This document shows positions 7,344-39,134 of a DNA stretch of 39,251 nt, one piece after another. The position numbers were made by a program, and so were the translations under genes. Under the pieces are notes generated by a model. That model saw only the letters and a list, made by a program, of their open reading frames with translations, did no database searches and was not told the origin of the DNA. Positions within the stretch are counted from its first letter, which is position 1, and each line of letters opens with the position of its first letter. The DNA is taken from positions 1-39,251 of the IMG/VR virus record IMGVR_UViG_3300037461_000497; one strand, written 5' to 3'. Source of the stretch: a virus. Lineage: Duplodnaviria; Caudoviricetes.

Positions 7344-7657
7344 GTTTTATCCCACCCATGCTTCCTTCGGAAAACAGCCCAGTTAAAATCATCTGGCCCC
7401 TTTCCAGAATTGCACCAAGCACATAAAGGCTGCAGGTTGTCTATGCCGTCAGATCCTCCGGCATATATCGGAATAATGTGGTCTTTCTCTATATAACAAT
7501 CGCCCCTTCCGCACCTCACGCAGCGATATTCAAACTCCTTCTTTATAGCCTCCCACTGTTCCTTCGTATGCGTGGCAATTTCCCTGGCACGCTTCAGCCT
7601 CTCTCGCCGTTTGATGGCATTATTTCGGAGCCTCTCAATATCAGAAACCATTCTCAT
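7340..7657 (-). CDS. HNH endonuclease
   Basis: CVRC...DHIIP..GG...NLQPLCAWCNSGK; low GC. Confidence 0.9.
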   Translation of the reverse strand: MRMVSDIERLRNNAIKRRERLKRAREIATHTKEQWEAIKKEFEYRCVRCGRGDCYIEKDHIIPIYAGGSDGIDNLQPLCAWCNSGKGPDDFNWAVFRRKHGWDKT

Positions 7658-8685
7658 GCAACTCGCTCCAAGCTAGTTCCAAGAACGGCCTTGATAGCGG
7701 CATGTACGTCGCGACGCCGGTAGGTGTTCGCCTCACGGACCAATCCCTGATCGCTCAAACGTTGCTGGCGCTTTGGTCCAGGCTTAAAACCTTGATTGCG
7801 CAACTCCTGGCCAACGTGCTGCTCCAGGTTCCATCCATGATTTGGCTTTGGGAGCTGGCTCGGATCTTTGTGGCGTTCCAGGCAGCCGTCGCGCACTGTG
7901 ATGAACTCGTCAGGGTCGAGGTCGAGTGCTAGTGTCTTTTTGATCTGCAATACCTCGGCTCGCGTGGCGCTAATCGCTTTGTCGTGGTTGTTGAGCACGC
8001 CAACGACGCGGTTGAGAACCTCTAGGTCGGACAGCCCGGAAGTGGCGAGGGAGCCGGACTTCGCCTGACGGTGGGCTTCGACGACGCGGCGCTCCATCCA
8101 GTCACCGAGCTGCTCGCGGAAGGCCTGGCCGGCTCGGCTTTCTGACTGCGTAAGAATCTGCACCATGCCAGAGCAGGTGACCAATAGACGCCCCTGCGCG
8201 TCGCGCCGCTTGTAGCGGCCGTCGAGTGCGGCGGCGCGCGTTTCGAGGAAACGCTCTAGGCTGCGTTTGCCACCATTCAGCGGCGACGGGCAGCCAGCCC
8301 TCGCATCCTCCTCGGTGATGCGGGATTGCACGTCGTCGACCGTAATCAGCGGCACGTCGTCGACCAGGAACAGTTCAAAGTCGTAGGTCCGACCGCGCCC
8401 CTCAAAGGTAAAGGTGACGGTTTCGTAGCTGTCGATTGTTGCTGGCAGGTTCATAACGTCGTCTCGGATGCCGTGGTTTAGTTCATGGCAGCGGTCGCAA
8501 ACGGCCAACAAATTGTCAGGATGGTCGTCGCTGAACCGCTTCGGATAACGGACGTGGTGCACTTGCGTTGCAGGAACAGCGCGGCATAGTTCGCAAACAC
8601 CGCGCGCGCGCTGCAGGATCACCTCGCGCATCTCGGTCCAGGCAGGCGAGGCTAGATATGCGCGGTACTCATCTGCCCTGCTCAT
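7654..8685 (-). CDS. HNH domain fused to an antirepressor-like/DNA-binding region
   Basis: CELC...VHHVRY...NLLAVCDRCHELNH in the first ~75 aa; remainder resembles phage Bro/Ant proteins by eye; GAGG RBS. Confidence 0.6.
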   Translation of the reverse strand: MSRADEYRAYLASPAWTEMREVILQRARGVCELCRAVPATQVHHVRYPKRFSDDHPDNLLAVCDRCHELNHGIRDDVMNLPATIDSYETVTFTFEGRGRTYDFELFLVDDVPLITVDDVQSRITEEDARAGCPSPLNGGKRSLERFLETRAAALDGRYKRRDAQGRLLVTCSGMVQILTQSESRAGQAFREQLGDWMERRVVEAHRQAKSGSLATSGLSDLEVLNRVVGVLNNHDKAISATRAEVLQIKKTLALDLDPDEFITVRDGCLERHKDPSQLPKPNHGWNLEQHVGQELRNQGFKPGPKRQQRLSDQGLVREANTYRRRDVHAAIKAVLGTSLERVA

Positions 8686-8773
8686 TCCTCGGCCTTTTGA
8701 CCATTCGCCCCATCCCACGCCACGGGCTCTTCTTGCTTGCAGCCTCAAGCTGGCGCGCGTGCTCGGGTTTCAT
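8669..8773 (-). CDS. 34-aa hypothetical protein MKPEHARQLE...
   Basis: Fills an operon gap; overlaps the next start. Confidence 0.35.
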   Translation of the reverse strand: MKPEHARQLEAASKKSPWRGMGRMVKRPRNEQGR

Positions 8774-14739: not shown

Positions 14740-16470
14740 CTACCGCTTCGGAAAGTACCCAAATTCAAGCAGTGAGTCAGCCCACGATGTCACGTCGGAG
14801 GCCGGCACCTCCATCTTCACTACCTGCTCACCATATTCAGCAGCCATCTTTGGCGACAGCGTTACCCAATCGCCGGGATTGATCTTGCCTTCGGCCCCAG
14901 ACGGAATGCCACGGTAGATCGTCACCTTGGCGTCAGGCTTGCCGCGAAGGCTTTGCAGTTGCTGAAGCACCCGCTTCTCTTCTCTGCCGACGAATCCCGT
15001 GCCACCGCTGCCGTAATACTGCAGGGCGTTAGGTCCGTAGATATCTTCGCCAAAGGCCGTCGTCAGATCATGCAGCCTAGCGGCGCCGCCTGCGTCCTGC
15101 ATCGGTCTGTGCTGTATGCGATACCCCATGTCGCCAGTATCGAGCAGACCGCGCGGTTGCGCCATCGCCGGCCCGTCGCCGTAGCGCACGATGAGGTCGT
15201 CCAGGCCGCCGAGAATGCCCTCCTGCTTGAGCATGGTGTCCATCTGCTCGATGGGATCGAGCAAGGCGCGCTGCTGCGGCGTCAGGTCGCGCCGCGCCTG
15301 GACGAGACGCGCCTCGGCTTCGCCGGCCAGGCGGCGGTATTTGTCTTGCGGCGATGGCGCCCTGCTTGCCTCGCGCAGCGCCTCTTTCAACTCCTTTTGT
15401 GAATACGTTTTTGCATAAATGGACGCAATGTGATCTTCAGGCTCAACGGCCTTTGTTAGCGGGTTTGCCATTTGCGCTCTGTAATCGGCAATTGCGTCCT
15501 GAATCGCTAATCCTTTTTGCTTTGCAATTTGCCTGATGTCTAAAGCCCTGAATAATGAGCGGACCCTCGCCTCATTAGCCGCCTGTTCAGCCGCAAACAT
15601 CTCAGGATTGCCGCCGCTGGCAAATCCCTCCTTCCGCTGAACCATGTGCTGTAGTTCATGCAGCCCGGTGGATTTCGCTGGACCCGGCTGCAACGCCTCA
15701 TTTAATGCGATCCAGTCGTTGCCAAGCGTGCCCGCTGCGTTCTGCCCCTCCTCAATGAGATTCAGCGGCATGTCCATGATGGACATCTTTTCCGGCGTCG
15801 TGGTGAACCCATACGGATAGGCGCGAGCAAGCGACTTGTGTTCGTACAACCTACTCAGGCGTACAGGCGCCTCCGGTATCGTATTTGCGCGAATTGATTC
15901 CCAGGCGTCGCCGACATTCGGCGCAACATACTTGCCCTCGCGTTTGGCGATCCATTGATCAAGCGGCAGCACATTGCGCATCTGGCTGTCGTCCACCTCC
16001 ATCCGCCACTTCTGGTCCCACGGCGCGCGGAACCAGCCGCCACTACCACCCGGCGGATTGGTCGCCTGCCGGATCGCCTCGCGACTGGCGCCGGACTGCT
16101 CCAGCTCAAACGCCTTCTGCAGCATCCGCAGCTCGTCGTCCGAGAGGTTGGCGCCCATGCCCTTGAAGATCCCGAGCGCGCCGCCAGCGAGCGGATTGAC
16201 GCCCCAGTCCATCGCCACGTCGAGCAGCCCCTCGCCCTGCCGGCGAAATAGCTTTTTGGCTTCCGGCGAGTCCGGCGACGGCATCGAACCGATGGCCCGA
16301 TACCACGTCATCGGATCGAGCAGGCTGCCCAGGAAGCCCAGCCGGTCGCCCGTGTTCTCGGCCCAGCCCTCCAAAAACCCGACCTCGGGCTCCATCTGCG
16401 GCCCGGCCGGCAGGGTGGTCCCGAGCAGGCCCTCGGCAATGGCGCGGCGGCGGGCTTCCAACAGGCTCAT
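14740..16470 (-). CDS. Polyvalent protein: LPD23-like, zincin metallopeptidase (HELQH) and ADP-ribosyltransferase-like C-terminus
   Basis: GWFRAPWDQKWRMEVDDS; HELQH..Q..EGF..GG; YRRLAGEAEAR; VTIYRG...INPGDWVTLS...EFGY; GGAGGAG RBS. Confidence 0.7.
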   Translation of the reverse strand: MSLLEARRRAIAEGLLGTTLPAGPQMEPEVGFLEGWAENTGDRLGFLGSLLDPMTWYRAIGSMPSPDSPEAKKLFRRQGEGLLDVAMDWGVNPLAGGALGIFKGMGANLSDDELRMLQKAFELEQSGASREAIRQATNPPGGSGGWFRAPWDQKWRMEVDDSQMRNVLPLDQWIAKREGKYVAPNVGDAWESIRANTIPEAPVRLSRLYEHKSLARAYPYGFTTTPEKMSIMDMPLNLIEEGQNAAGTLGNDWIALNEALQPGPAKSTGLHELQHMVQRKEGFASGGNPEMFAAEQAANEARVRSLFRALDIRQIAKQKGLAIQDAIADYRAQMANPLTKAVEPEDHIASIYAKTYSQKELKEALREASRAPSPQDKYRRLAGEAEARLVQARRDLTPQQRALLDPIEQMDTMLKQEGILGGLDDLIVRYGDGPAMAQPRGLLDTGDMGYRIQHRPMQDAGGAARLHDLTTAFGEDIYGPNALQYYGSGGTGFVGREEKRVLQQLQSLRGKPDAKVTIYRGIPSGAEGKINPGDWVTLSPKMAAEYGEQVVKMEVPASDVTSWADSLLEFGYFPKR

Positions 16471-16484
16471 GCTAGACTCCTCCA

Positions 16485-16619
16485 ATGCGTGATGCGTTCG
16501 CCTTCGGCCTCATCGCGCCCCTGGTCTGGGCCGCGCTGTGGGGGATCGCGAAGATCCTCGCCGATGGCCTGCGGTCCCTACTGCGACAGAAGCAGCCCAC
16601 CGGCCGCACCCGGCCCTAG
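16485..16619 (+). CDS. 44-aa antisense single-transmembrane protein (MRDAFAFGLIAPLVWAALWGIAKIL...)
   Basis: Extended -10 TGCTAGACT at 16470-16478 ends 7 nt before the ATG; fills the gap between minus-strand genes. Confidence 0.6.
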   Translation: MRDAFAFGLIAPLVWAALWGIAKILADGLRSLLRQKQPTGRTRP

Positions 16620-26421: not shown

Positions 26422-26993
26422 GACAGGTTGTAGTTCTGCAGGTACGACCCGTAGTAGGTCGTGCCGTCATAGTAGAACGCATAGATGTCATGGCGGCTGG
26501 CGGCACTCGTCATGGTCGGCGCCGCGCTCGCTGGCCACTCGACAGCCGCCGGCCAAGTCACGGTGTAGCCGCCGGCCGCCGCCTGGATCACCTTCAGCAC
26601 CAGCCCGGAGGTCGGTCCCGGCGGCGCGGTGAACGTCACCGTGGTGCTGGCCGTCAGGGTCATCTTCTGCTTCAGGCCGTTGTTCCAATCAATGGCCGAC
26701 GCCGTGGCCGCGTTGCCGGCGTTGTACTCGGCGTGGAAGCTCGCCGTCTTGAGGCCGCCCAGGTCGTTGTTGCCCATCGCGATGTCGCCGGCCATCGTGC
26801 CGCCGGTCAGCGCCAAGGCAGTGGTGTTGAGCAGCGTGTCGGTCGCGGTGACCGCGGCGTCGATGTTCGGGAATGTGGCCTTCAGCACGGACTTGATAAG
26901 GCGAATGTGGTCGTCGCCCTCGCTCTTGGCGTCGCCGCTGGCCGGATAGCTGGCGTTCAGGTCGTCAATGTAGGTGGCGCTTTCGACGGTCAT
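26418..26993 (-). CDS. Short tail fibre
   Basis: MTVESATYIDDLNASYP...SEGDDHIRLIKSVLKATFPN podovirus fibre N-terminus; LTGGTMAGDI. Confidence 0.75.
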   Translation of the reverse strand: MTVESATYIDDLNASYPASGDAKSEGDDHIRLIKSVLKATFPNIDAAVTATDTLLNTTALALTGGTMAGDIAMGNNDLGGLKTASFHAEYNAGNAATASAIDWNNGLKQKMTLTASTTVTFTAPPGPTSGLVLKVIQAAAGGYTVTWPAAVEWPASAAPTMTSAASRHDIYAFYYDGTTYYGSYLQNYNLS

Positions 26994-27610
26994 GGTGCAA
27001 ACCCCGTGCTGACTGTGAGCGTTGAGCCTGTCATGATCTCGGAACGGCCGCTGCGGTTGGCGTCCACCAGCGCCTGCCGGAACAGCGCCTCCCACACGCC
27101 GATGCGCGGATCGTCGTGCAGGAAGCCGCGCGCCTCGACCAGCGAGCCGTACAGCAGCAGGCTCGGGTACGTGGTCGTCAGGAAGTTGCTGGTGTTGCTC
27201 ACCGATAGCGCCGCCGGCCGCGCGTAGTAGATGCCCTTGATGGTGTAGTTGCTGTCCGGGTGCGGCCCGAAGATGAAGCTGGTCCCCTCGCGCGCGATGT
27301 ACGCCGGCATCCCCTCGCTTGAGCGCGTCGGGTAGCGGTTGTAGATGAAGTCGGTGGACACGCGCTGCAGCGGCTGCGTCGGCGAGCCGTCCACGTACGC
27401 GCTCTTGAGTTCCAGCAGGCCGGCCGGCACCGCGATCACGCCGCTTGCGATGGTGGCGTTGAGCGCCGTCTCCATGTCGGCGACGCGCAGGACCTGATAG
27501 ATCGCCTGCTCGGCCAGGGCGATGAAGTCGGTGACGTAGGCCGTCAGGTCGCTGCGGTCGAGCCAGGTGGCGACGGCTGTCTGCAGGTCGGAGTAGGTGC
27601 CCAGTGCCAT
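26990..27610 (-). CDS. Head-tail adaptor
   Basis: TYSDLQTAVATWLDRSDL...FIALAE; NFLTTTYPSLLLYGSLVEA. Confidence 0.8.
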   Translation of the reverse strand: MALGTYSDLQTAVATWLDRSDLTAYVTDFIALAEQAIYQVLRVADMETALNATIASGVIAVPAGLLELKSAYVDGSPTQPLQRVSTDFIYNRYPTRSSEGMPAYIAREGTSFIFGPHPDSNYTIKGIYYARPAALSVSNTSNFLTTTYPSLLLYGSLVEARGFLHDDPRIGVWEALFRQALVDANRSGRSEIMTGSTLTVSTGFAP

Positions 27611-28476
27611 TAGTGGAACCTCGCGAACACGGCCTGCCACTGCGCCGCCACGGTGGCCGGCGAGTAGCGGTCGCGGATATACCGCTGCCCGGCCTCGACC
27701 ATCGCCTTGACGGCGTCCGGGTGCTTGCGCGCCCAGCGGATGCCGTCGAGCATGGTGTCGGCGATGTAGATGTAGTCCTCCAGCTCGCGGTAGTGGTAGA
27801 TGTCGCTCGCCACCACGAACTGCCCCTGCCGCAACGCCTGGATCGCGCGGTTGTTGCTGGTGACCCACTTTTTGCGGTGCGCCGTGTCCTGCGGCAGGAT
27901 CACGATGTCGTGCTCCTCGAACGCCTTGAGCATGACCTCGCGCGAGTACGGCAGGAACCTGACGTTGACCTTGCTGGCCGGCTCCGGGATCGCCGTGATG
28001 GCCGTCAGCGGACAGTCCAGCTCGACGCCGCGTAGGGTGTTGATGTTCGGCAGGTTGCCGAACCACAGCACGCGCTGCCCGCCGCGCCAGTGGAATGGCC
28101 GCTCCTCGAACTCGTACGGGTCGAGGATCGGCACGACCTCGCGGCCCTGCGTCTCGGCGATCCACTCGGCGAGCTTCGGCGACGAGGCCGTCACCACGGT
28201 CGCCGCCGCGGTCATGTCCCGATACCAGTCGGCAAGGTCCGGCGTGTCGAAGTGGTAGTCGGTGATGTCGAACACGCCGCCCAGCTCGCGCATCTGGCGG
28301 ATGTCGTCCTCGCCGCCCCACTTGTGCCAGACGTTGACGGTCGCCGTCTGGTCCGGCTGGGTGTCCACGAACACCTCGGCGCCCTGCCGCACCAGTTCGG
28401 CGCCGGGAATGATCGCCCGGTAGCGCGTCGAGGCCAGTACCCCATCCATATCCTGCGTGACGTGATTGATCTTCAT
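27610..28476 (-). CDS. Glycosyltransferase-like protein (GT-B/GT4-like)
   Basis: ASTRYRAIIP, VFDITD, LWFGN, DIVILP...SNNRAIQAL..G, RYSPATVAAQW. Confidence 0.7.
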   Translation of the reverse strand: MKINHVTQDMDGVLASTRYRAIIPGAELVRQGAEVFVDTQPDQTATVNVWHKWGGEDDIRQMRELGGVFDITDYHFDTPDLADWYRDMTAAATVVTASSPKLAEWIAETQGREVVPILDPYEFEERPFHWRGGQRVLWFGNLPNINTLRGVELDCPLTAITAIPEPASKVNVRFLPYSREVMLKAFEEHDIVILPQDTAHRKKWVTSNNRAIQALRQGQFVVASDIYHYRELEDYIYIADTMLDGIRWARKHPDAVKAMVEAGQRYIRDRYSPATVAAQWQAVFARFH

Positions 28477-28940
28477 TTACGCGCCTCCAGGCGCATGTCG
28501 CGAACAGCAAAGTGCCATTGCGGCGGCGCCGGCTCGGCATCCCGAAAGCCGCTCTCTTCCACCAGTGACTTCAGCTCATCGAAGCCATACGCCCACTTGT
28601 GCGTCATAATGACCGACTGGTATCTCGGGTCACCGTACAGACCCCACAACGTCATCTGGTCCGGCAGGCCCTTGAGCAGATTGCGGACGATCTTGGCCAG
28701 GTCCGGGCACTCCAGCACCAGCTTGCCGCCGGGCTTGAGCACGCGCGCCCACTCCTCCAGCACCGCCGCCACTTCCCAGCGATAAAAGTGCTCGATGACG
28801 TGGATCGCCATGATCTCGTCGGCCGACTCGTCTTCGAACGGCAGCCTGCGTATGTCGGCATGCACGTCGGCGCGCGGATCAAGATCGACGTTGGTGTAGC
28901 CGACGATATTGCGGCAGCCGGACCCCAGGTTCAGCCTCAC
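28473..28940 (-). CDS. Class I SAM-dependent methyltransferase
   Basis: LNLGSG, NVD, LPFEDES, HVIEHF, RVLKPGG. Confidence 0.88.
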   Translation of the reverse strand: MRLNLGSGCRNIVGYTNVDLDPRADVHADIRRLPFEDESADEIMAIHVIEHFYRWEVAAVLEEWARVLKPGGKLVLECPDLAKIVRNLLKGLPDQMTLWGLYGDPRYQSVIMTHKWAYGFDELKSLVEESGFRDAEPAPPQWHFAVRDMRLEARK

Positions 28941-29647
28941 GCAACCGCCCTCGCATAGGCTCGCCAGTCCGGGTCCCACGGCGTCGCCACGGCGTCCGGT
29001 ACGTCCGGCGTTGCTAGGGTGTAATGCACCGCCTTGGCCTCGACCTGGGGGTCCGACCAGCCCTGCAGCCAGTTCCATTCCGGCGGCAGGAAGCCGATGG
29101 CGCCGTCCGTCAGCCACTGGAAGCCGTGCAGCCAGGCGCCCGGCTGCGAGTTGGCCTGGTACGTGGTCAGCATCTGGGCCTGCGGATGGCGCGCGTTGAC
29201 CAGCATCAGGCTCGACCAGTTCTTGCGCGGGTAGGCCTGCTGCGCCACGCCGCCGCGCAGCTTGGTGGTCTGCTTCGGCGCATAGGCGTGCGGCACGACC
29301 ATCACGGCGTAGCGGTCGTCGGCCAGGGCGAACAGGTCGGCGACATCCGCCCGCCACAGGAAGTCGGAGTCGCAGAACAGGACCCAGTCGGCGTCCTCGG
29401 CCACCGCCAGCATGGGGACCAGGAAGCGCGAGAAGCTGAAGTCGGTCGAGAACGGCTTGCCGTCCTGCGCGTCGTACCGCTGCCCGTCGTCGCTCCAGAA
29501 CGCGCGCCGGTACAGGCCGGCACGGCGCAGGTTGTCCTGCTTGAGCGGCGTGACGTACGCCCGCGGACAGTGCGCCAGCAGGGACGCCCGGCACACCCGG
29601 TAGGCGAGGTCTTCGCGCGCGTCGTAGCCGATAAAGACTCTAGGCAT
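28937..29647 (-). CDS. GT-A glycosyltransferase (GT8/CDI-like)
   Basis: VFIGYD.RE, STDFSFSRFLVP, DSD (DxD), YPRKNWSSLML, EWNWL, VHYT. Confidence 0.85.
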   Translation of the reverse strand: MPRVFIGYDAREDLAYRVCRASLLAHCPRAYVTPLKQDNLRRAGLYRRAFWSDDGQRYDAQDGKPFSTDFSFSRFLVPMLAVAEDADWVLFCDSDFLWRADVADLFALADDRYAVMVVPHAYAPKQTTKLRGGVAQQAYPRKNWSSLMLVNARHPQAQMLTTYQANSQPGAWLHGFQWLTDGAIGFLPPEWNWLQGWSDPQVEAKAVHYTLATPDVPDAVATPWDPDWRAYARAVA

Positions 29648-30590
29648 AGGCCACGCACGATTCGCAGATCGTCCCGGTCACGTCCTTTCTGAGGTGCGCC
29701 TCGCGCAGCGCGACGAAGGCCGGCGAGTTCCAGCCCTCCATGAACGGCACCTCGTGCAGATCCGCCATGATCCACGCGCTGGTCGCGTCGAAGCAGCACG
29801 CGCTCAGTTTGCCGTCCGCCGTGACGTGGCCCTCGGTGAACGCCGACCAGCACGGCAGCGGCTCGCGCAACGCGCCGATCCGGCCCTGGTTGCCCGCGGT
29901 CGGCCGGTAGCCCAGTTCCTCCTCGCGCTGCGTTGCCAGCGACCCCATGCTATACAGCGGCAGGTAGTAGTGCTGATCGACGTAGGGCAGCACGTACCGC
30001 TCCAGCGTGAGTTGCATGCGCTCGGCCTGCTCGCCGTCGTAGGCGATGCTGCTGGCATACAGGCCGCAGCGGAAGCCGCCGGCATCGCGGATGCGCCGCG
30101 CCTCGCGCAAGTTGTCGAGCGCCGCGTGAAAGAGCTTCGGCTTGACCGCCATGATCTCGGCGAACTGCTCCGGGTCGGCGGCGTTGACGCTGAACTTCAG
30201 CGAGTCCAGGCCGGCGCCGAACAGGGCCAGCGCCACGTCCGGCGTGCACAGGCTGCCGTTGGTCGTCAGGAACACATACGGCATCTGCAGTTGCGTCTTG
30301 AGGTAGCGCACTGCCTCGATGGTCAGGTCCGGCGCGGTCAGGCTCTCGCCGAGATAGAACACGCCGATCTCCTCGACGCCAGCTCTCCTCATCTCGGCGG
30401 TGATCTGCTTGAAGAACGCCAGATCCATCTTGGTGTTGGTCTGCGTCTCGCGCGTGCGCAAGGCGCAGAAAGCGCACCGGTAGTTGCAGGCGTTGGTCAG
30501 CTCGATCTTGACCGACTTCGGCGCCGGCAGGACCGCGGCCATGTACTCCGGCGCGATCTTGGTGATGCGGTCTATCTTGTCGGTGATCAT
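29640..30590 (-). CDS. Radical SAM protein with SPASM/Twitch domain
   Basis: CNYRCAFC; LTTNGSL; C-terminal PC...DGKLSACC...WNS...CESC. Confidence 0.92.
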   Translation of the reverse strand: MITDKIDRITKIAPEYMAAVLPAPKSVKIELTNACNYRCAFCALRTRETQTNTKMDLAFFKQITAEMRRAGVEEIGVFYLGESLTAPDLTIEAVRYLKTQLQMPYVFLTTNGSLCTPDVALALFGAGLDSLKFSVNAADPEQFAEIMAVKPKLFHAALDNLREARRIRDAGGFRCGLYASSIAYDGEQAERMQLTLERYVLPYVDQHYYLPLYSMGSLATQREEELGYRPTAGNQGRIGALREPLPCWSAFTEGHVTADGKLSACCFDATSAWIMADLHEVPFMEGWNSPAFVALREAHLRKDVTGTICESCVAYA

Positions 30591-32011
30591 GCCGCTTCCC
30601 TCGCGCCCGCGAACTGCTGCAGCGCCAGCGCCACCTGCTCGACGCTGTCGGCCCACTCGTCGTCCTTCGGCCGGCGGAACAGGCGCACGCTGCCGTAGTA
30701 CGGCATCCGCTCGCCGTGGTTGCAGTAGTGCTGGTTCGGCCAGGGGTGCACCAGACAGAAGGCCGGCGTGCCCAGCGCGCCCGCGGCGTGGATCGCCGTG
30801 GTCGGCACGCCGATGACGAGATCCAGCTCGGCGATCAGCGCGGCCGGGTCGTCGTAGTCCAGGTTGGCCTGGATGTGCACGTTGCTGTGGATCGGAATGT
30901 GCCGCCGCGCCACGAAGTCGCGCAGCTCGTCGCGCTTGTCCTGGTACTCCAGCGACACGAACGTATGGCCCTGCCGCAGCACCGGCAGCAGCGCGTCGAG
31001 CGGCAGATTGCGCGCCCGCTTGCCGGTCAGGGTGTGGCCGCCGTTGAGGCACAGGCCGATCTTGAGGCCGCCGCCCAGGCTGTCGAGCCAGCCGCGGTAC
31101 ATGGCCCGCAGGCCCGGATCGGCGACCAGATAGGGCGTCTTGGGGTAATCGGCCTCGCTCTTGCGGAAGTACGTGTGCAGGCTGAACAGGCTGCACGAGT
31201 GCGTGATGTCCGGTTTCTCGCCCCAGTCCAGTTGCTTCTTGAGCGCGTCGCCGTGCACCGGGATGCCGGGAAACGACCGCTGGAACAGGCTGCGCATCTT
31301 CGGGTCCACGTCCAGCGCGGCCACCGTCACGCACTGCATCACGTCGGTGAGCGGCTCGATGCCGGCGATCTGGTCGCCGATGCCCTGCTCGCTGTACACC
31401 AGCAGCCGCACGTCCTTGCCGGCGTCGCCCTGCCAGCGCGGCTCGCCGACGTAGTTGCGGATCTGCCGGTATTTCAGGTGGCCGGCGCCGTGCTCGTAGA
31501 GCGGCCAGCCGCGGCCGAAGTCGCGGTCCTGCAGGTAGGCAAAGCCCTTGTTGGACAGCGCCTGGATCGAGTCCGGCTGCACCGCCAGCGCCTTGTCAGC
31601 CCATTCGTGCACGGCGGCGGTGTCGTGCCGCTGCACCGCCAGGGTGGACAGGCCGAGCAGGGCCTTGACGTTGTCCGGCTCCAGGTCGAGCACCTGCCGA
31701 TAGACCGTCTCGCTGCGGTCCCACTGGCACAGCATGTCGTAGGCCTTGGCGAGGTTGAGCAGCGTCTCGGTGCGCTCGCCGTGGTTGGCCAGCAGCCAGT
31801 CGTACACGCAGCGTGCGTCGGCGTACCGCTCCTGCACGATGCGCAGCCGGCCCAGCAGGAACAGGCCGCGCATGTCGTCCGGGTGGTCGTTCAGGTAGTG
31901 CTTGAGGGCGACATCCGCCTGCTCGAACAGTTCGGAATCGAGCAGCGCGCGGATGTAGTCGAGATCGCCAGCGGTCCAGTGGTGCTGCTCCAGCACAACG
32001 CGCTTTGTCAT
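30587..32011 (-). CDS. TPR-repeat protein fused to GT9-like glycosyltransferase
   Basis: N-terminal TPR helices; EQGIGDQI; PYL; LDLVIGVPTTAIHAAGALG; PYYGSVRLFR. Confidence 0.85.
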   Translation of the reverse strand: MTKRVVLEQHHWTAGDLDYIRALLDSELFEQADVALKHYLNDHPDDMRGLFLLGRLRIVQERYADARCVYDWLLANHGERTETLLNLAKAYDMLCQWDRSETVYRQVLDLEPDNVKALLGLSTLAVQRHDTAAVHEWADKALAVQPDSIQALSNKGFAYLQDRDFGRGWPLYEHGAGHLKYRQIRNYVGEPRWQGDAGKDVRLLVYSEQGIGDQIAGIEPLTDVMQCVTVAALDVDPKMRSLFQRSFPGIPVHGDALKKQLDWGEKPDITHSCSLFSLHTYFRKSEADYPKTPYLVADPGLRAMYRGWLDSLGGGLKIGLCLNGGHTLTGKRARNLPLDALLPVLRQGHTFVSLEYQDKRDELRDFVARRHIPIHSNVHIQANLDYDDPAALIAELDLVIGVPTTAIHAAGALGTPAFCLVHPWPNQHYCNHGERMPYYGSVRLFRRPKDDEWADSVEQVALALQQFAGAREAA

Positions 32012-32379
32012 AGCTTCCCTGGGATGGTCTTGAGGTAGGAGTAGTCGCGCGAGTTGAGCAGGCGCTTGAACTTGCGCTGCCCCTCGGGCGACAGCCGGTG
32101 CGGCCGGTCGCCGCGACTGCCTTCGTAGAGGTCGAAATTTTCCTCCTTGAGCCACTTGTGCTGGACACCGACCGGGATCGACGCGGCGTGCATCCAGCCG
32201 CGCTTGATGCCGCGCTTCATGCGCTGCTCGTCGTTGGCCAGCCGCTTGTTGCGGTCGAGGATCGCCTCGACCACGCGCGGGTCCTGGAACGTCTCCAGGG
32301 CAAAGCCGCCATCCGGCGTGTCGTGGTAGTACTGCGCCATGCCGGTGGCGGCGTCGTAACTGAGCAACCTGCGCGCCAT
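32008..32379 (-). CDS. Conserved-looking phage hypothetical protein
   Basis: ILDRNK, HAASIP..V..KW, LNSRDY.YL.T; coupled to the GT gene. Confidence 0.7.
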   Translation of the reverse strand: MARRLLSYDAATGMAQYYHDTPDGGFALETFQDPRVVEAILDRNKRLANDEQRMKRGIKRGWMHAASIPVGVQHKWLKEENFDLYEGSRGDRPHRLSPEGQRKFKRLLNSRDYSYLKTIPGKL

Positions 32380-32380
32380 G

Positions 32381-32524
32381 TCACATCCGGCCGCTGCCGC
32401 CCTTGGGCTTGCTGCTCGGCATCCGGTGGCCGTCCTTCGGCGCCGGGTGCCGGCCAGAGAAACCGCTTTTGGTTTCGTTGTGCTTGAGCATCTTCTTGGG
32501 ATCGGGTCCAGACTTCGCCTTCAT
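32381..32524 (-). CDS. 47-aa basic peptide MKAKSGPDPKKM...KPKGGSGRM
   Basis: GGAGG RBS after the capsid terminator. Confidence 0.55.
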   Translation of the reverse strand: MKAKSGPDPKKMLKHNETKSGFSGRHPAPKDGHRMPSSKPKGGSGRM

Positions 32525-32534
32525 GCGTGCCTCC

Positions 32535-32561
32535 AAACAAAGGGGGCGCCGAAGCGCCCCC
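32535..32561 (-). terminator. Intrinsic terminator after the major capsid gene
   Basis: GGGGGCGC-TTCG-GCGCCCCC then TTTGTTT. Confidence 0.85.
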
Positions 32562-32583: not shown

Positions 32584-33543
32584 TTAACTGCAGCCGGACA
32601 CCTTCGCCGAAGCGTCCGGGTTGAGCGCCTTGAGGGTGAACTCGGTCAGCACCAGCCGCTTCTCGGCATCGCCGGTCTTGGCCAGCTCGACCGTCTGCAT
32701 CGGCCGCAGGTAGGCGACCTCCCAGTAGTCCATGTCGAGGCAGTACACGTTGTTGGCCGGCATGAAGCGGTCGGCCACGATGTAGTGCGTCCCGAAGTCG
32801 GACACGTAGGTGTCGGCCGAGCCGATGATGACGCCAGGACCCACCTGCGGATTGTCGCGGTACTGGGTGGCAATGCCGGTGAAGCCGCTGATGGCCTGCT
32901 TCAGCGAGGCGTTTACCAGCACGAGCGACGCATCGCCACCGTCCTCCCAGGCCGCCGCAATGGCGCTGTTGAGCCGGCTGCTGACGAGCGCCGATACCGA
33001 CGTCGTAGTGAGCACGTCAACGAGGGGCGCACCGCTGGTCACTGGCGCAGTGCTGTAGTTGGTGACAACGGCCACGTTGTTGCCGAACAGCCACGGGCCG
33101 ACGCCAGCCAGCTTGCGCGCGCCGTCGATGGCGCCAGCGGTCGCGCCCTGGTTGCCGAGCAAGGTGTACTCCATGTCGCGCTTGAGTTCCCGGCTGCGCT
33201 TGAGGATCTGGTACTGCAGCTCGGAACCGCGCCCGGCCTTCTCTGACACATCGAGCGTGCCGGCGACAACGGGCACCTTCCACATGATCTGGCAATAGTT
33301 TGCCCAGCGCGTGGTCGGCGAGGCGGTCATGCCAACGGCATCGTCGCCCTCGATCCGCGGCACGTTGGTCGCGGCGGTCAGGCTGTCGGTCTGCCACTCG
33401 GTGTACTTCTGCGTGGTGCGACCACGCTTGGCGTTGGTGAGAAACGGCGTCTCGGTCGGCGAGATGTCGTAGATGATGTTGGCGAGGTCTTCCTTTACGC
33501 CAACGGCGGAATAACTGACGAAAGTCCCGGTAGGAACGGCCAT
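32584..33543 (-). CDS. Major capsid protein (DUF5309/SU10-like)
   Basis: EDLANIIYDISPTETPF, EWQTDSL, NYCQI, ELKRDME, YVSDFG, LAKTGDAEK; follows scaffold. Confidence 0.9.
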   Translation of the reverse strand: MAVPTGTFVSYSAVGVKEDLANIIYDISPTETPFLTNAKRGRTTQKYTEWQTDSLTAATNVPRIEGDDAVGMTASPTTRWANYCQIMWKVPVVAGTLDVSEKAGRGSELQYQILKRSRELKRDMEYTLLGNQGATAGAIDGARKLAGVGPWLFGNNVAVVTNYSTAPVTSGAPLVDVLTTTSVSALVSSRLNSAIAAAWEDGGDASLVLVNASLKQAISGFTGIATQYRDNPQVGPGVIIGSADTYVSDFGTHYIVADRFMPANNVYCLDMDYWEVAYLRPMQTVELAKTGDAEKRLVLTEFTLKALNPDASAKVSGCS

Positions 33544-34797: not shown

Positions 34798-34933
34798 GCT
34801 TGGGCGCCTTCTTCCACGAGCCGCTGGCCGTGCGCGGCGGCTTGACCGGCGGCCGGTGGGTTACCAGCTTCTTGCGGTCGCGGTCGCCGATCAGCGCCTT
34901 GATGCGCGGATCAATCGAGCTTGAGGATGCCAT
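34790..34933 (-). CDS. 47-aa basic peptide (...DPRIKALIGDRDRKKLVTHRPPVKPPR...)
   Basis: Translated by hand; fills the gap; start uncertain. Confidence 0.35.
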   Translation of the reverse strand: MASSSSIDPRIKALIGDRDRKKLVTHRPPVKPPRTASGSWKKAPKRG

Positions 34934-35339
34934 TGGCGTTCCAGCTCAGGGTGAGGGTGTTGCCGTCGCTGACCGTGACGCTGGCCGGCGAGTTGTCGAT
35001 CAGGCCGTAGGCCACCAAACAGTCGCCGGTCGGCGTGTCGTCGATCAGCACCCAGTAGTGCGCCGTGAAGGCCGCGCCGCTGGCCGTCCACACCACGTTG
35101 GCCGCGCTCCAGGCGATGGCCGAGCCGGTCTGCGCCAGCGCGAGGCTGCCAAGCGTGGCGCGCGCGTAGCCGCCGGCCGCCACCTCGTTGGTCAACTGCG
35201 TGGTCACCGAGTGGTCGGCGCCGGGCGTGTAGCCGCTCTGCAGCAGCGCGACCAGGAAGGTGTCGGAGTCGAAGTCGATCTCCTTGTTCAGCAGCCGCTG
35301 CTTGAATTTCGTGTAGAAGTTGATTGTTCCGGTTGCCAT
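34911..35339 (-). CDS. Virion structural protein (fibre base/decoration)
   Basis: IDFDSDTFLVALL, TNEV..GGYAR, TLTLSWNANGI. Confidence 0.7.
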   Translation of the reverse strand: MATGTINFYTKFKQRLLNKEIDFDSDTFLVALLQSGYTPGADHSVTTQLTNEVAAGGYARATLGSLALAQTGSAIAWSAANVVWTASGAAFTAHYWVLIDDTPTGDCLVAYGLIDNSPASVTVSDGNTLTLSWNANGILKLD

Positions 35340-36910
35340 CAGTGCCTCCAGGCTCTGCCAATGAGGAGCAAAACCTCCTCGTCGTCGTCCAGCAGTTGCT
35401 GCAGCTCGCGCTGCAGTTCCGCCTCAGCCCGGCGCCGTTGCTTGAGCATCCGGGTAATGTCGGCCTTGCGTTGCGCGATCCGCGGCACCGGCTCGGCCTG
35501 CGCCTGCGCAACTTCGAGCGCCTGCTCGGCCTCGCGCAGCAGCGCGTTGAGCAGTTGCGCCTGCTCGGCCGCCGTGCGCGTCTTGTAGACCCGGCCGCGG
35601 TACAGCAGGCGCCGCCAGCGCCGGCCGACGCCACCGCCGCGCCTGGGCGCCAGGATCGCCGTGCCGCCGATGGTCTGAGGCGCCAGGCCGGTCAGCACCA
35701 GCGTGGCGAGCGGAATCAGCGACCGATCCACGCGCACGGCGGTGACCGGCGCGTTGCCCGTCAGGCTGAGTGTGCCGGTTGGGATCAGCGCCGCGGCCAC
35801 GCCCAGCAGGCTGGTCGGCGCGTAGCCGGTCAAGGCCAGCGCGCCGGTCGGGACCTCGGTCGGCGTATCGACCGCAGACGTGCTGGTCGGCGCGTTGCCG
35901 GTCAGCGCCAGATCGCCGCGCGGCAGGTAGCTGGTCGCGACGCCGAGCGTCGACTCGGGCGGCAGGCCCGTGAGCGTTATGTCGCCACGCGGCAGGTAGC
36001 TGCGCGCGACGTACACCGCGCTGTCGGGTGCGTTGCCGGTCAGCGACAGGTCGGCGCGCGGAATCTCGCTGGTGATGTGCGCGCTTGCCGCGACCAGGCT
36101 GGTCAGTTCGTTGCCGGTCAGCGTCAGGGCGCCGCGCGGAATCAGCGAGTAGCTGACCGCGACACCGCTGGTCGGCGCGTAGCCGGTGAGGGTCAGGCTG
36201 CCGGACGGCAGCAGTGCCTTACTGACGCCGGTCGCGCTGGTCGGCGTCAGGCCGGATAAGGTCAGCGCGCCTAGCGCAACTGCGCTTGTCGTTGCCGTAG
36301 CCGGCGCACTACTCGGCGCCGTGTCGCCGTTGGTGCCGACGCCGAAAGTATCGAATGATGCAGCGTAGCCGTTCGGTTGGTAATAGGCCGGGCCAAGCCA
36401 GCCACTACTACTGATGCTGCTGTCGTCGGTGACGGTGACAGTGCCTAACGGGCTCGATTCATCTCCATCCGTCGCCCAGATTTTCGCGACCAGATCGTTG
36501 CCATTTACGCGAAAGCGAATGTTGTAATAGGTGTCGTTTGATAGCGTGACCGCTGCGCTACCCAGGGAAGTGCCGGATTCCGACGCATTGAAATAATAGA
36601 TGCGGAGCGTCGTGCCACTTACAGCGACCGTATAGCACGTCGGTGATCCGGCGGAACCCGAGCCGCGGATAAAGCCGCAATGATGCCGATTACCGAGATT
36701 TGAGCTTTTCCATTGGAACAGTAGATCTACATCATCATCGTCGCCAACCGTGTCCCAGGAAACGCCGCAAAAAAGAAAGTTGGCGCTGGAAGTATCGGCA
36801 GATAGCACGCCTGACGACACGGCCCAGTCAGTGTCCGGCGTGTCCCATCGTCGGGTCCAGGTAGACCCGATCGAGAAGCCGGAAAAGTCGTCTGTGAAGT
36901 ACTGGGCCAC
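35339..36910 (-). CDS. Fibre-like protein: N-terminal lectin-like domain, nine ~23-aa PxGxLxLTGxAP repeats, C-terminal coiled coil ending DDDEEVLLL
   Basis: Repeats at about 35665-36296; N-terminal domain has lower GC. Confidence 0.7.
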   Translation of the reverse strand: MAQYFTDDFSGFSIGSTWTRRWDTPDTDWAVSSGVLSADTSSANFLFCGVSWDTVGDDDDVDLLFQWKSSNLGNRHHCGFIRGSGSAGSPTCYTVAVSGTTLRIYYFNASESGTSLGSAAVTLSNDTYYNIRFRVNGNDLVAKIWATDGDESSPLGTVTVTDDSSISSSGWLGPAYYQPNGYAASFDTFGVGTNGDTAPSSAPATATTSAVALGALTLSGLTPTSATGVSKALLPSGSLTLTGYAPTSGVAVSYSLIPRGALTLTGNELTSLVAASAHITSEIPRADLSLTGNAPDSAVYVARSYLPRGDITLTGLPPESTLGVATSYLPRGDLALTGNAPTSTSAVDTPTEVPTGALALTGYAPTSLLGVAAALIPTGTLSLTGNAPVTAVRVDRSLIPLATLVLTGLAPQTIGGTAILAPRRGGGVGRRWRRLLYRGRVYKTRTAAEQAQLLNALLREAEQALEVAQAQAEPVPRIAQRKADITRMLKQRRRAEAELQRELQQLLDDDEEVLLLIGRAWRH

Positions 36911-36913
36911 GAT

Positions 36914-37297
36914 TTAGAAGTCGCTTACGTCGCTCGCCTCGACATTCATCGTCGGCTGATTCTGTTTGCCGATAGTGCCGATCAGGTCGCGCATCCTGGT
37001 GCCAACGGTGATTTTCGACAAATCGACGCCGAAAGACTCAAGCCGCGATCTGAGGGTCATGCGTTCTTGGGCTGGCACCGCGTTGAAGGCGGTATCAAGC
37101 GTTAGATCCGGCAGCACGACACAGGCGCTGTCTGCGTTAATCGCAGTCAGGTCTTTCACGCCAACTTGGCAAAGCGTCCACTTCCCTGCTGCGTAATCCT
37201 TCGGCGGATAGGAACGGAAATTCTCCGTAAACCGCGATACAGCGGGCTCGATGTTGCCGTCGATTAGCTCCAGCTTGCACACAACCCATCGCTTCAT
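36914..37297 (-). CDS. Hypothetical protein
   Basis: 127-aa ORF with lower GC, next to the fibre gene. Confidence 0.65.
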   Translation of the reverse strand: MKRWVVCKLELIDGNIEPAVSRFTENFRSYPPKDYAAGKWTLCQVGVKDLTAINADSACVVLPDLTLDTAFNAVPAQERMTLRSRLESFGVDLSKITVGTRMRDLIGTIGKQNQPTMNVEASDVSDF

Positions 37298-37298
37298 C

Positions 37299-37400
37299 TC
37301 AGCACGTCCTCACGATAATGGCCTCGGGCCACAGGATCGGCCACGGCGGCAGCAGCGGCGGCTGCGGCAGGAAGTACCAGGCCAACAGCAGCGCGGTCAT
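37299..37400 (-). CDS. 33-aa Pro-rich hydrophobic peptide
   Basis: ATGA overlap; GAGGAG RBS. Confidence 0.4.
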   Translation of the reverse strand: MTALLLAWYFLPQPPLLPPWPILWPEAIIVRTC

Positions 37401-37660
37401 TCGGTCAGCTCCTCGACCACGGCGCGGCACTCGCGCAGCGCCGACTGCAGGATCACATCGCGCTCGGCGAGGCGCAGGTACACCGCGTCGGTCAGGCACG
37501 ACAGTTCCACCGCGCTCACCGCCGGCAGCACTGGCTCGGGCAGATCGACAATCGGCTTGACGCACCCGGCCGGCGCGCAGCCGCTCAGCGCCCAGGCCAG
37601 GCTGACGACCACGATCAGGAGGATCGCAGTCCACATGGTCAGGGCGTCATCCGGCTCCAT
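37397..37660 (-). CDS. Outer-membrane lipoprotein, o-spanin (Rz1-like)
   Basis: Signal peptide with LSGC lipobox, Pro-rich stretch, additional Cys. Confidence 0.65.
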   Translation of the reverse strand: MEPDDALTMWTAILLIVVVSLAWALSGCAPAGCVKPIVDLPEPVLPAVSAVELSCLTDAVYLRLAERDVILQSALRECRAVVEELTE

Positions 37661-37802
37661 TGGTCCCCAGCACCTCGGTCACGCGGCGATCCCAGGATGA
37701 CGACAGGTGACTGCCGCCGTTGCGGTGCCGCCAGATTTCCTCAAGCAGCTCACGCAGCAGGCGCACCTCGCGCAGCAGGGCGGCGGTGGCGGCGTCGGTC
37801 AC
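37647..37802 (-). CDS. 51-aa hypothetical protein between the spanin genes
   Basis: GTGA overlap with the i-spanin stop. Confidence 0.5.
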   Translation of the reverse strand: MTDAATAALLREVRLLRELLEEIWRHRNGGSHLSSSWDRRVTEVLGTNGAG

Positions 37803-38077
37803 GGTCCGTATCCCTGCTCGAAATGGTCGCGCTTGCGCGCGTCCAGTTCCTCGCGCCACTCGCGTTCCCTAGCCCGCACGCGGCTGATCCGCTCGGCGAT
37901 ACGCTTCTCCGACCGCCGCGCGGCTGCGAGCGCATCGGCCCGCTGGCTGGCCCGCGATGCCTTGGCGCTCGCCATTCGCCACGCTACCCACAGGCCGCCC
38001 AGTGCGAGCAGGCCCGCCAGGGCGATGGCGCCGTAGATTTTGAGCCGCAGTGGCAGCAGCGCGAGCCAGGCGATCAC
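37799..38077 (-). CDS. i-spanin (Rz-like)
   Basis: N-terminal transmembrane segment then coiled coil. Confidence 0.65.
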   Translation of the reverse strand: MIAWLALLPLRLKIYGAIALAGLLALGGLWVAWRMASAKASRASQRADALAAARRSEKRIAERISRVRAREREWREELDARKRDHFEQGYGP

Positions 38078-38220
38078 TTAGCGTCTCCACCGACGACCCA
38101 CGCCACGAGAAGGGAGAAACCGAGCCACCCGACGAGCAACCAGCCATGCAGGTCCGTCAGCACGTCCCACGCTGCCAGCAGGTACGGGTCCAGCCACATT
38201 GCCGGGTGACTCGGTGCCAT
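38074..38220 (-). CDS. 48-aa membrane protein (holin candidate)
   Basis: MAPSHPAMWLDPYLLAAW...GWLLVGWLGFSLLVAWVVGG; abuts both neighbours. Confidence 0.45.
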   Translation of the reverse strand: MAPSHPAMWLDPYLLAAWDVLTDLHGWLLVGWLGFSLLVAWVVGGDAK

Positions 38221-38778
38221 TTACGCCTTCTTCACGATGGTCGATCCGGTAGGAGCCTGATAGTTCGACCCCGGCACTGAGGTTTCCGGCAGATCGAGCA
38301 GAGGGCGCTCGGTCATCTCGTTGAGCAACTTCTCGATGACCGTCAGGTTGTTGATAGCGCGCTCGTGATCCTTCGGGTGCAGGCCGCCGGCATGGGCCGC
38401 CGACTGCGACTTGGCCAGCTCGACCGCCGTGATGAGCCAGTACTCGGCGAGCAGTTGCGTCGATTCGTTGATCGGCACTTCCTCGCCGTTCACCGACGTG
38501 GTGAACGTCACGTAGGGCTCCTCGAAGTTGATGTCGAGGCGGATCGGGTGCGTCGCCGGCTGGTCCGGCTCGGGCTTGCTGGCGATGGCATTGACCAGGC
38601 CGGTCGCGTAGGCGAGATAGTCGCGCTGCCGCTTGATGGCGTGGTCGGTCAGCCCCTGGCTGTAGGCCGACGACGCCTCCTTGGCAATCGTCTTGCCGTA
38701 TTCAAACAGCGTTTTGCAGACAGAACGCAACTCGGCGTTCCTGTTAGCGTATGTAACGAAGAGTTCTGATAGCGCCAT
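38221..38778 (-). CDS. 185-aa hypothetical helical protein with two-fold internal repeat
   Basis: AKEASSAYSQGL...PEPDQPAT aligns with AKSQSAAHAGGL...PLLDLPET; GAGGTG RBS. Confidence 0.75.
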   Translation of the reverse strand: MALSELFVTYANRNAELRSVCKTLFEYGKTIAKEASSAYSQGLTDHAIKRQRDYLAYATGLVNAIASKPEPDQPATHPIRLDINFEEPYVTFTTSVNGEEVPINESTQLLAEYWLITAVELAKSQSAAHAGGLHPKDHERAINNLTVIEKLLNEMTERPLLDLPETSVPGSNYQAPTGSTIVKKA

Positions 38779-38876
38779 GTGTCACCTCGTTGGTGTCAGG
38801 TGGACCGGCAACCCCAGAGGGGCTTTCGGCAACGAGGCAAACCTAGCCGGTCCATTGTCGGCCTGCCTCTCGATTC
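38779..38876 (-). ncRNA. Putative structured cis-regulatory RNA (anti-SD pseudoknot/switch)
   Basis: 9-bp stem 38854-38846/38809-38801; loop segment complementary to both neighbouring RBSs. Confidence 0.45.
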
Positions 38877-39134
38877 TCAGCGCGCGAACTTGTCCTCTTT
38901 GTCCGGCTTGCCGCCGGCCCGCTTGCCTTTCACTTCCTCGGCGATCTCATTGCCCATACCGAGCAGCAACTGAGCCAGCGCCGGGATGGCGACCGCCTGC
39001 AGGTTCTGCATGTACTCGTACTTCATGTCGAAGTACTCCTGCACCGTGCGGCTGAACGGCGTGGGTTCGCCGGTCGTCGCGTCGCGGATGTCGAGGATGA
39101 TGCTTACGTTGTATCTGCTGTTCTCGTCGGCCAT
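38877..39134 (-). CDS. 85-aa hypothetical protein
   Basis: GAGG RBS; continues the late operon across the circular junction. Confidence 0.7.
   Translation of the reverse strand: MADENSRYNVSIILDIRDATTGEPTPFSRTVQEYFDMKYEYMQNLQAVAIPALAQLLLGMGNEIAEEVKGKRAGGKPDKEDKFAR

Follow-up and report, generated by a model that had tools for sequence, protein, structure and literature searches.

Five enzyme genes lie between the genes for the major capsid protein and the head-tail adaptor of a tailed phage (Duplodnaviria; Caudoviricetes) known from the virus record IMGVR_UViG_3300037461_000497, whose entire 39,251 nucleotides make up the window analysed here. Comparison of these genes with their relatives in phages and bacteria suggests that the cassette they form O-glycosylates a protein of the virion, most likely the capsid, in the cytoplasm, a reading to which we give a probability of roughly 0.6. 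The cassette is predicted to encode a TPR-containing glycosyltransferase (GT) of the GT9 fold (hereafter TPR-GT), a radical S-adenosylmethionine (SAM) enzyme, a GT8-like transferase, a methyltransferase and a GT4-like transferase, and these assignments support the glycan-building role that had been proposed in an initial reading of the DNA by itself (the sequence-only reading).

Layout and expression of the cassette

The features on which the argument draws are all on the minus strand and are, in order from the capsid gene to the adaptor:

32584..33543, minus strand: major capsid protein, SU10/LUZ24-like (PF17236, E 5e-84; phrog_1328), candidate glycan acceptor
32542..32561, minus strand: terminator-like hairpin 3' of the capsid gene (8 G-C pairs, 4-nt loop, T run; consensus match)
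32381..32524, minus strand: basic open reading frame (ORF) of 47 amino acids with a GGAGG ribosome-binding site
32008..32379, minus strand: conserved head-module gene, 123 amino acids (phrog_3982), marking the insertion slot and outside the enzyme set
30587..32011, minus strand: TPR plus GT9-fold GT-B transferase, 474 amino acids, predicted initiating, protein-directed glycosyltransferase
29640..30590, minus strand: radical SAM enzyme with Twitch (single auxiliary cluster) domain, 316 amino acids (PF04055 and PF13186), predicted sugar epimerase or dehydrogenase
28937..29647, minus strand: GT8/GT24-fold GT-A enzyme, 236 amino acids (phrog_28018; DxD motif D93-D95)
28473..28940, minus strand: class I SAM-dependent methyltransferase, 155 amino acids, GTG start (PF08241, E 6e-13), predicted sugar O-methyltransferase
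27610..28476, minus strand: GT4-like GT-B enzyme, 288 amino acids (PF13524, E 2e-4, weak), partner of the methyltransferase
26990..27610, minus strand: SU10-type head-tail adaptor (PF24175, E 2e-33), coupled to the last cassette gene by a TAATG overlap

The order of the five enzyme genes and their translational coupling, both described in the sequence-only reading, were confirmed from gene calls and overlaps, with all six junctions from the 123-residue gene to the adaptor overlapping (ATGA, ATGA, 8 nt, GTGA, ATGA and TAATG). Its gene list was correct as regards the enzymes, and the interval additionally holds the 123-residue gene and the 47-residue ORF, for which profile searches gave no family match. 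The cassette is absent at this slot in the cultured relatives Venkman, where the order is capsid gene, a gene for 107 amino acids and tail tube A, and phiM5, where other genes precede the homologue of the 123-residue gene; since these relatives lack it there, the cassette is, on this comparison, an accessory insert. Homologues of the 123-residue gene are present in both phages (the phiM5 record omits its copy from the particle proteins), and because both are cassette-less, that gene would be ancestral to the head module. In composition the cassette resembles the structural genes, as had been noted, with GC contents of 0.63-0.70 against 0.65-0.71 and third-position values (GC3) of 0.82-0.95 against 0.87-0.95. 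Among near-identical wetland variants, 17 of 20 listed variant sites within the five genes are third codon positions (p 3e-6; drawn from 40 listed of 942 differences).

The cassette had also been placed on the late transcript together with the structural genes. This can only be inferred, and the terminator-like hairpin (32561-32542) separates the capsid gene from the cassette and would lower the transcription of what lies beyond it, from the cassette to the adaptor and tail genes. Since the hairpin follows the capsid gene and a consensus scan found no sigma-70-type promoter for the cassette, we infer that the cassette is co-expressed with the adaptor and tail genes by read-through. By hydropathy none of the five proteins has a transmembrane segment (highest 19-residue value 1.5). 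There are no recognised nucleotide-sugar synthesis genes in the window, so the sugar donors would come from the host.

Enzyme assignments and a proposed pathway

The TPR-GT9-like assignment of the first enzyme is supported by a predicted model and by fold comparison. In the AlphaFold2 (AF2) model (predicted local distance difference test score, pLDDT, 92) a TPR region of about residues 15-175 precedes a GT-B domain, which VIA-align matches to the GT9 structure 3tov (Z 17.9, root-mean-square deviation 3.1, 258 residues aligned), to heptosyltransferase II (1psw; Z 17.3), to WaaC (Z 15.8) and to TibC (Z 15.4), a protein heptosyltransferase. The enzyme thus has the same catalytic fold as TibC and the GT9 heptosyltransferases of lipopolysaccharide synthesis (WaaC and heptosyltransferase II; Z 15-18), from which it differs in being 10-15% identical and fused to TPR. 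Foldseek matches include SPY/OGT as well as GT9, and the layout as a whole is OGT/SPY-like. All 33 aligned sequences have the residues corresponding to Q209, G210, G212 and D213. A Pfam/NCBIfam search gave no PF01075 match for the window protein, and two of the 33 relatives match TIGR02201 weakly; PF01075 does appear among the Atlas feature matches. A tree of 97 sequences sets the viral proteins apart as a clade (support 0.998) that includes a single bacterial sequence, on a long branch. Family members were collected via capsid and radical SAM loci; a single-sequence scan of viral contigs with the TPR-GT gave no match, and the GenBank phage collection yielded one metagenomic record only.

A soluble protein with an N-terminal TPR region and a C-terminal GT-B part is also found in FlmG of Caulobacter and Brevundimonas (described in PMC7591256 and 10.1101/2022.03.25.485807), which according to PMC7591256 binds flagellin via its TPR domain and glycosylates it in the cytoplasm. 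The GT parts are of similar size as described there (about 288 amino acids in FlmG, about 295 in the window protein), and homologues of the window TPR-GT likewise adjoin flagellin. The phage enzyme differs in its shorter TPR region, in belonging to a viral clade and in having no pseudaminic or legionaminic acid genes in the window.

The second enzyme had been assigned to the BtrN-type Twitch radical SAM proteins, and this holds: BtrN, which dehydrogenates an aminocyclitol, is the best PDB match, spanning both domains, and PF04055 and PF13186 are both matched. The similarity is remote (E 6e-15), viperin-like and MoaA enzymes come next among the sequence matches, and of 46 NCBIfam matches the best 25 all stayed below the curated family cut-offs; in the GenBank phage collection the protein matched only two distant partial records. 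The cysteines of the CX3CX2C motif (C35, C39 and C42) are invariant in 148 of 148 sequences, as are C247, C265, C266, C309 and C312. Four of these (C247, C265, C309 and C312) align with BtrN C169, C187, C232 and C235, which we take to be ligands, and C266 is an extra cysteine beyond the aligned set. The phage enzyme shares the motif and the four aligned C-terminal cysteines with BtrN, a relative of the sugar epimerases NeoN and HygY, and differs from BtrN in its remote similarity, in lacking an antibiotic cluster, in having a GT8-like partner and in the FNR box upstream of its bacterial relatives (see below). NeoN, as reported in PMC10991966, epimerises with a spare cysteine as hydrogen donor. 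Oxidation, the role that had been proposed, is one option only, and the invariant spare C266 fits an epimerase equally well, so that an epimerase is predicted to be as plausible as an oxidase.

For the third enzyme, the GT8-like GT-A assignment is upheld by an AF2 model (pLDDT 92) and by Foldseek matches to GlyE, UGGT, WbbM and LgtC (TM 0.50-0.62). Both D93 and D95 of its DxD motif are invariant. It stays below the Pfam PF01501 gathering score (19 bits against 24.3), and one relative scores 31.9; the tie to plant CDI that had been mentioned is a putative one. The class I methyltransferase (PF08241, as listed) shares 43% identity with the C-terminal domain of GT-B-methyltransferase fusions from bacteria. 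The 288-residue protein had been called GT-B-like, in agreement with its ESM Atlas neighbours, which are of the GT4 type (TM 0.86-0.93); PDB sequence searches with it gave no transferase match. In the bacterial loci L153, L159 and L225 the GT4-like enzyme and the methyltransferase are one fused protein.

From these assignments one could assume the following course of events. With the acceptor docked on the TPR domain, a first sugar would be transferred by the GT9-fold domain to a serine or threonine from a host nucleotide-sugar, for which ADP-heptose or a CMP-ulosonate would be candidates by fold and analogy. The GT8-fold enzyme would extend this first sugar. The radical SAM enzyme would abstract a hydrogen from the donor or the product of the GT8 step, at low oxygen only, resulting either in epimerisation, with the spare C266 giving a hydrogen back, or in BtrN-like oxidation. 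A terminal cap would then be added and O-methylated by the GT4-like enzyme and the methyltransferase. The coat, which would be made late in the lytic cycle, could shield the particle or change its adhesion. A predicted complex of the TPR-GT with the capsid protein scored 0.00, which is evidence neither for nor against such an interaction.

Relatives in phages and bacteria, and the phage itself

A synteny search had been suggested for this arrangement and was carried out on 80 viral loci chosen by capsid similarity alone. The slot between capsid and adaptor is occupied by the TPR-GT in 47 of the 51 loci with a visible adaptor (20 of 22 after dereplication at 95% capsid identity, 11 of 13 at 85%), and the remaining four have another glycosyltransferase-like gene there. 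The genes after the TPR-GT vary, and include methyltransferases, GT9, one unassigned family and FkbM-type genes; some relatives add deoxy- or amino-sugar, FkbM-type and sulfotransferase genes. A second set consists of 70 viral loci, many of them partial, with radical SAM proteins at 47-70% identity. Within 10 kb of the radical SAM gene a GT8-like gene is present in 47 of these loci (adjacent in 36), the TPR-GT in 28, and GDP-mannose dehydratase plus DegT aminotransferase genes in 12. The radical SAM relatives adjoin capsid genes of several unrelated families, in podovirus- and siphovirus-like layouts. Two loci depart from this pattern: L046, with primase and ribonucleotide reductase, and L036, with a DNA methyltransferase and an exonuclease. 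In L022 (2004-11254) and L031 the radical SAM gene has heptose-pathway-like neighbours, namely genes for a SIS isomerase, a PfkB kinase, a nucleotidyltransferase and an epimerase, and L022 carries two radical SAM paralogues. Inspection of gene maps of phages without the radical SAM gene revealed no consistent oxygen-dependent stand-in.

The GT8-like gene is held by 44 of 50 genomes with the radical SAM gene (hand-picked from 80 loci), against 15 of 151 genomes sampled from one order. Within the order sample it is present in six of seven genomes with the radical SAM gene and in eight of 143 without it (Fisher p 1.4e-6, with the seed genome excluded, kinship uncorrected and the genomes incomplete). 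Most simply, the radical SAM enzyme would edit a sugar handled by the GT8-like transferase, presumably at low oxygen.

The bacterial radical SAM set comprises the best 80 of 249 relatives from a genome scan, and all five families occur together in three of its loci, one beside flagellin (L159) and two beside type IV pilin (L153 and L225, Azoarcus sp. L1K30); a further locus, L173, has three of the five families beside flagellin. In the order sample a TPR-GT homologue is present in 63 of the 151 genomes, and in the seven best-scoring of these pilin genes adjoin it. Ten of the 30 best TPR-GT loci have a pilin (7) or flagellin (3) gene within 1.5 kb. A conserved order of pilB, an HD-domain gene, a gene for about 110 amino acids, the TPR-GT gene and pilA was seen in Burkholderiales (L298-L304, L153 and L225), and the pilB-pilA arrangement is accompanied by arrays of TPR-GT9 and TPR-GT41 genes; judged by gene order, this may be a pilin glycosylation locus that has not been described before. 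Beside the radical SAM or GT8-like gene, an additional isomerase gene of the SIS-CBS type (KdsD/KpsF-like) recurs in L159 (10979-11959), L167, L183, L193 and L308, hinting at a Kdo- or arabinose-related sugar.

The bacterial radical SAM copies are mostly solitary, with Usp, Fnr, two-component, ccoNOQP (cbb3 oxidase), NrdD, U32, nar and NnrS genes as neighbours. A search with an FNR consensus, allowing up to one mismatch, gave a box in the 250 bp upstream of 52 of 79 bacterial copies, against none of 79 internal controls; for viral copies the count was one of 62, the same as in the control. A tandem radical SAM paralogue is present in the bacterial loci L184, L187, L199 and L204 (set L152-L231). 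In a tree of 115 of the 148 sequences (FastTree, midpoint root) the bacterial copies are nested within the viral diversity, from which we draw no direction of transfer because the bacterial set consists of the best 80 matches to the query. On sequence comparison, this FNR-box Twitch radical SAM family is a highly conserved, uncharacterised family in bacteria.

The virus record has direct terminal repeats and a CheckV completeness estimate of 53%. By profile searches the window encodes terminase, SU10-type portal, scaffold, capsid and adaptor, and it also has genes for ejection-type proteins, an endolysin, Erf and exonuclease recombination functions and a weak spanin match. With these terminase and SU10-type head genes and its repressor-like, excisionase and integrase genes, the phage is by gene content a temperate LUZ24/SU10-like podophage. 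The host is likely Gram-negative, the spanin-like gene being a weak match. The best-matching sequencing runs are wetland metagenomes, with no RNA run among the matches listed; contigs from four wetland runs cover all 30 bins of the window, and no single piece spans the cassette. The endolysin, spanin-like, 523-residue and gp80-like fibre genes lie between portal and scaffold (152-1248 and 34911-39134, across the circular junction), and this lysis and fibre block is a second insertion point of the head module. The ejection-protein block ends in a 581-residue protein (14740-16485, minus strand) that has an LPD23 polyvalent-protein domain and, at its C terminus, a ParB-like match, two HNH endonuclease matches stand side by side at 7340-8748 (minus strand), and the bin of lowest GC is 7001-8000 (0.535).

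Alternative readings, known systems and implications

A number of observations weigh against virion glycosylation by this cassette. Since all five families were found in just one other viral locus (L006) of 150, the five genes are, as far as gene content tells, a mix-and-match set and not a fixed pathway, and the GT8-like gene often lies outside the slot, upstream of terminase. Most bacterial radical SAM copies are away from glycosylation genes, in low-oxygen contexts. Because the pilA-linked loci share flanking genes, they probably count as one ancestral locus, and the flagellin-adjacent TPR-GT is just 23% identical. Two pilA-linked TPR-GT loci include a Wzy_C membrane protein, which weakens the analogy of direct transfer, since in these loci the TPR-GT may build a lipid-linked glycan. 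The likeness to FlmG is one of domain layout and size, compared by description. A Ser/Thr-rich capsid loop (residues 153-188) was considered as an acceptor marker and rejected, as it is rich in these residues whether or not the cassette is present: its Ser/Thr fraction is 0.31 in the window and 0.24-0.45 in cassette-bearing relatives, and three cultured relatives that gave no match to any cassette family have values of 0.24-0.28. The comparison of capsid loops therefore singles out no acceptor.

The bacterial neighbourhoods could also point to the host surface as the target. The cassette might edit a host appendage glycan (type IV pilin or flagellin, or a lipid-linked precursor) and mask the receptor from competing phages or from re-adsorption of progeny. 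The closest bacterial homologues adjoin pilA or fliC, the phage is temperate, soluble enzymes would make a flippase of its own unnecessary, and pilus glycosylation as a block to phages is cited in 10.1101/2022.03.25.485807. We nevertheless hold this to be unlikely, as the genes are coupled between head and adaptor, behind the capsid terminator and with no promoter found in the consensus scan, the slot is held across diverse relatives, the viral TPR-GTs form a clade separate from host ones, and late expression would presumably follow the export of most pili. O-antigen conversion of the Gtr type had been argued against for want of a membrane flippase, and hydropathy and family searches did find neither a flippase nor a membrane transferase; that argument is incomplete, however, because the bacterial homologues are themselves soluble enzymes at pilin and flagellin loci. 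Another possibility is an intracellular, non-virion target late in infection, such as an assembly factor of the phage, a defence protein of the host or a pool of nucleotide-sugars or small molecules. Regulators of the OGT/SPY type, which act on soluble proteins, likewise combine TPR with GT-B; 52 of the 79 bacterial loci have an FNR box upstream of the radical SAM gene, in most cases with no GT gene nearby; and viperin-like and MoaA enzymes rank directly behind BtrN. Such a target appears quite improbable to us, since three transferases and a methyltransferase, together with the relatives' deoxy- and amino-sugar, FkbM-type and sulfotransferase genes, better fit a multi-residue, capped surface glycan, and the presence of the radical SAM gene predicts that of the GT8-like gene genome-wide.

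It could also be that the pathway consists of the transferase and methyltransferase genes only, and that the radical SAM gene is a passenger from low-oxygen metabolism which has no part in it and settled in a tolerant slot. Two loci (L125 and L141) carry the other four families without the radical SAM gene, and its mostly solitary bacterial copies stand near Fnr, Usp, ccoNOQP, NrdD, U32 and nar; its place next to a GT8-like gene in 36 of the 70 viral loci and the excess of GT8-like genes among radical SAM genomes (44 of 50 against 15 of 151) make this, too, a rather doubtful explanation. Glycosylation of packaged DNA as a protection from restriction enzymes we regard as very unlikely. Phages do have GT-A and GT-B enzymes that place sugars on 5hmC and 5hoC DNA, as described in 10.1101/2023.12.21.572611 and PMC13326640, an arabinose-5-phosphate-isomerase-like gene of a kind used in one such pathway adjoins the radical SAM gene in L159, L167 and L183, and in L046 that gene adjoins primase and ribonucleotide reductase. 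The known pathways cluster with a base-hydroxylating enzyme, however, according to the same two sources, the bacterial homologues of the cassette are at pilin and flagellin loci, and PHROGs profiles for 78 of 186 neighbour families gave no TET or thymidylate synthase match. The case made earlier against DNA hypermodification stands in the window as well, with no 5mYOX/TET, C5-methyltransferase, thymidylate synthase or DNA polymerase among the genes scanned, several small ORFs being without assignment.

O-glycosylation of a virion protein would have its nearest phage counterpart in the mycobacteriophages, where in cluster O three GTs and an O-methyltransferase modify capsid and tail tube (Freeman 2023, as cited in PMC11600133). 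Tandem GT genes with an O-methyltransferase are common to both systems, as outlined in PMC12619734 and PMC11600133, whereas the phage studied here is a podovirus of a likely Gram-negative host, has a TPR-GT9 and a radical SAM enzyme, and its acceptor is predicted; no actinophage record matched its TPR-GT, GT8-like or radical SAM proteins in the phage collection search. The Caulobacter phage CcrColossus has a six-gene cassette (gp126-131; JX100810.1, locus L264) between tail and lysis genes, with a GT8-like gene (41% identical) alongside members of four further families of the same pool. It differs from the window phage in being a jumbo siphovirus with no TPR-GT or radical SAM match, and a literature search found no functional study of gp126-131. 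In the chlorovirus PBCV-1, virus-encoded transferases and a methyltransferase (A064R, GT-GT-methyltransferase) reportedly cap the capsid glycan; the system differs in belonging to a eukaryotic giant virus and in its N-linked glycan. The literature searched, with subscription papers and supplements outside it, gave no account of the cassette, of TPR-GT9 in phage head modules or of the pilA-linked module.

As a broader and distinctly tentative picture, it is possible that a large uncultured phage group took over a bacterial pilin and flagellin glycosylation toolkit, in which a TPR-guided GT9-fold enzyme would prime the capsid in the cytoplasm and a radical SAM epimerase, in bacteria FNR-linked, would make a rare sugar only without oxygen, so that virion and host-pilus glycans would switch with the oxygen level. 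The conserved FNR-box radical SAM family gains from the present analysis a testable prediction as a sugar epimerase, and a bacterial module comprising TPR-GT9, GT8-like enzyme, Twitch radical SAM and GT4-methyltransferase fusion, as yet uncharacterised, is defined at pilA and fliC loci. The cultured phage CcrColossus and the isolate Azoarcus sp. L1K30 make parts of the system testable now. The variation of the glycan genes between relatives suggests selection on the particle surface. If our reading is true, phage virion glycosylation, established in mycobacteriophages, would extend to widespread phages of Gram-negative bacteria, with an initiating enzyme that differs from that of the mycobacteriophages and is of the appendage type.

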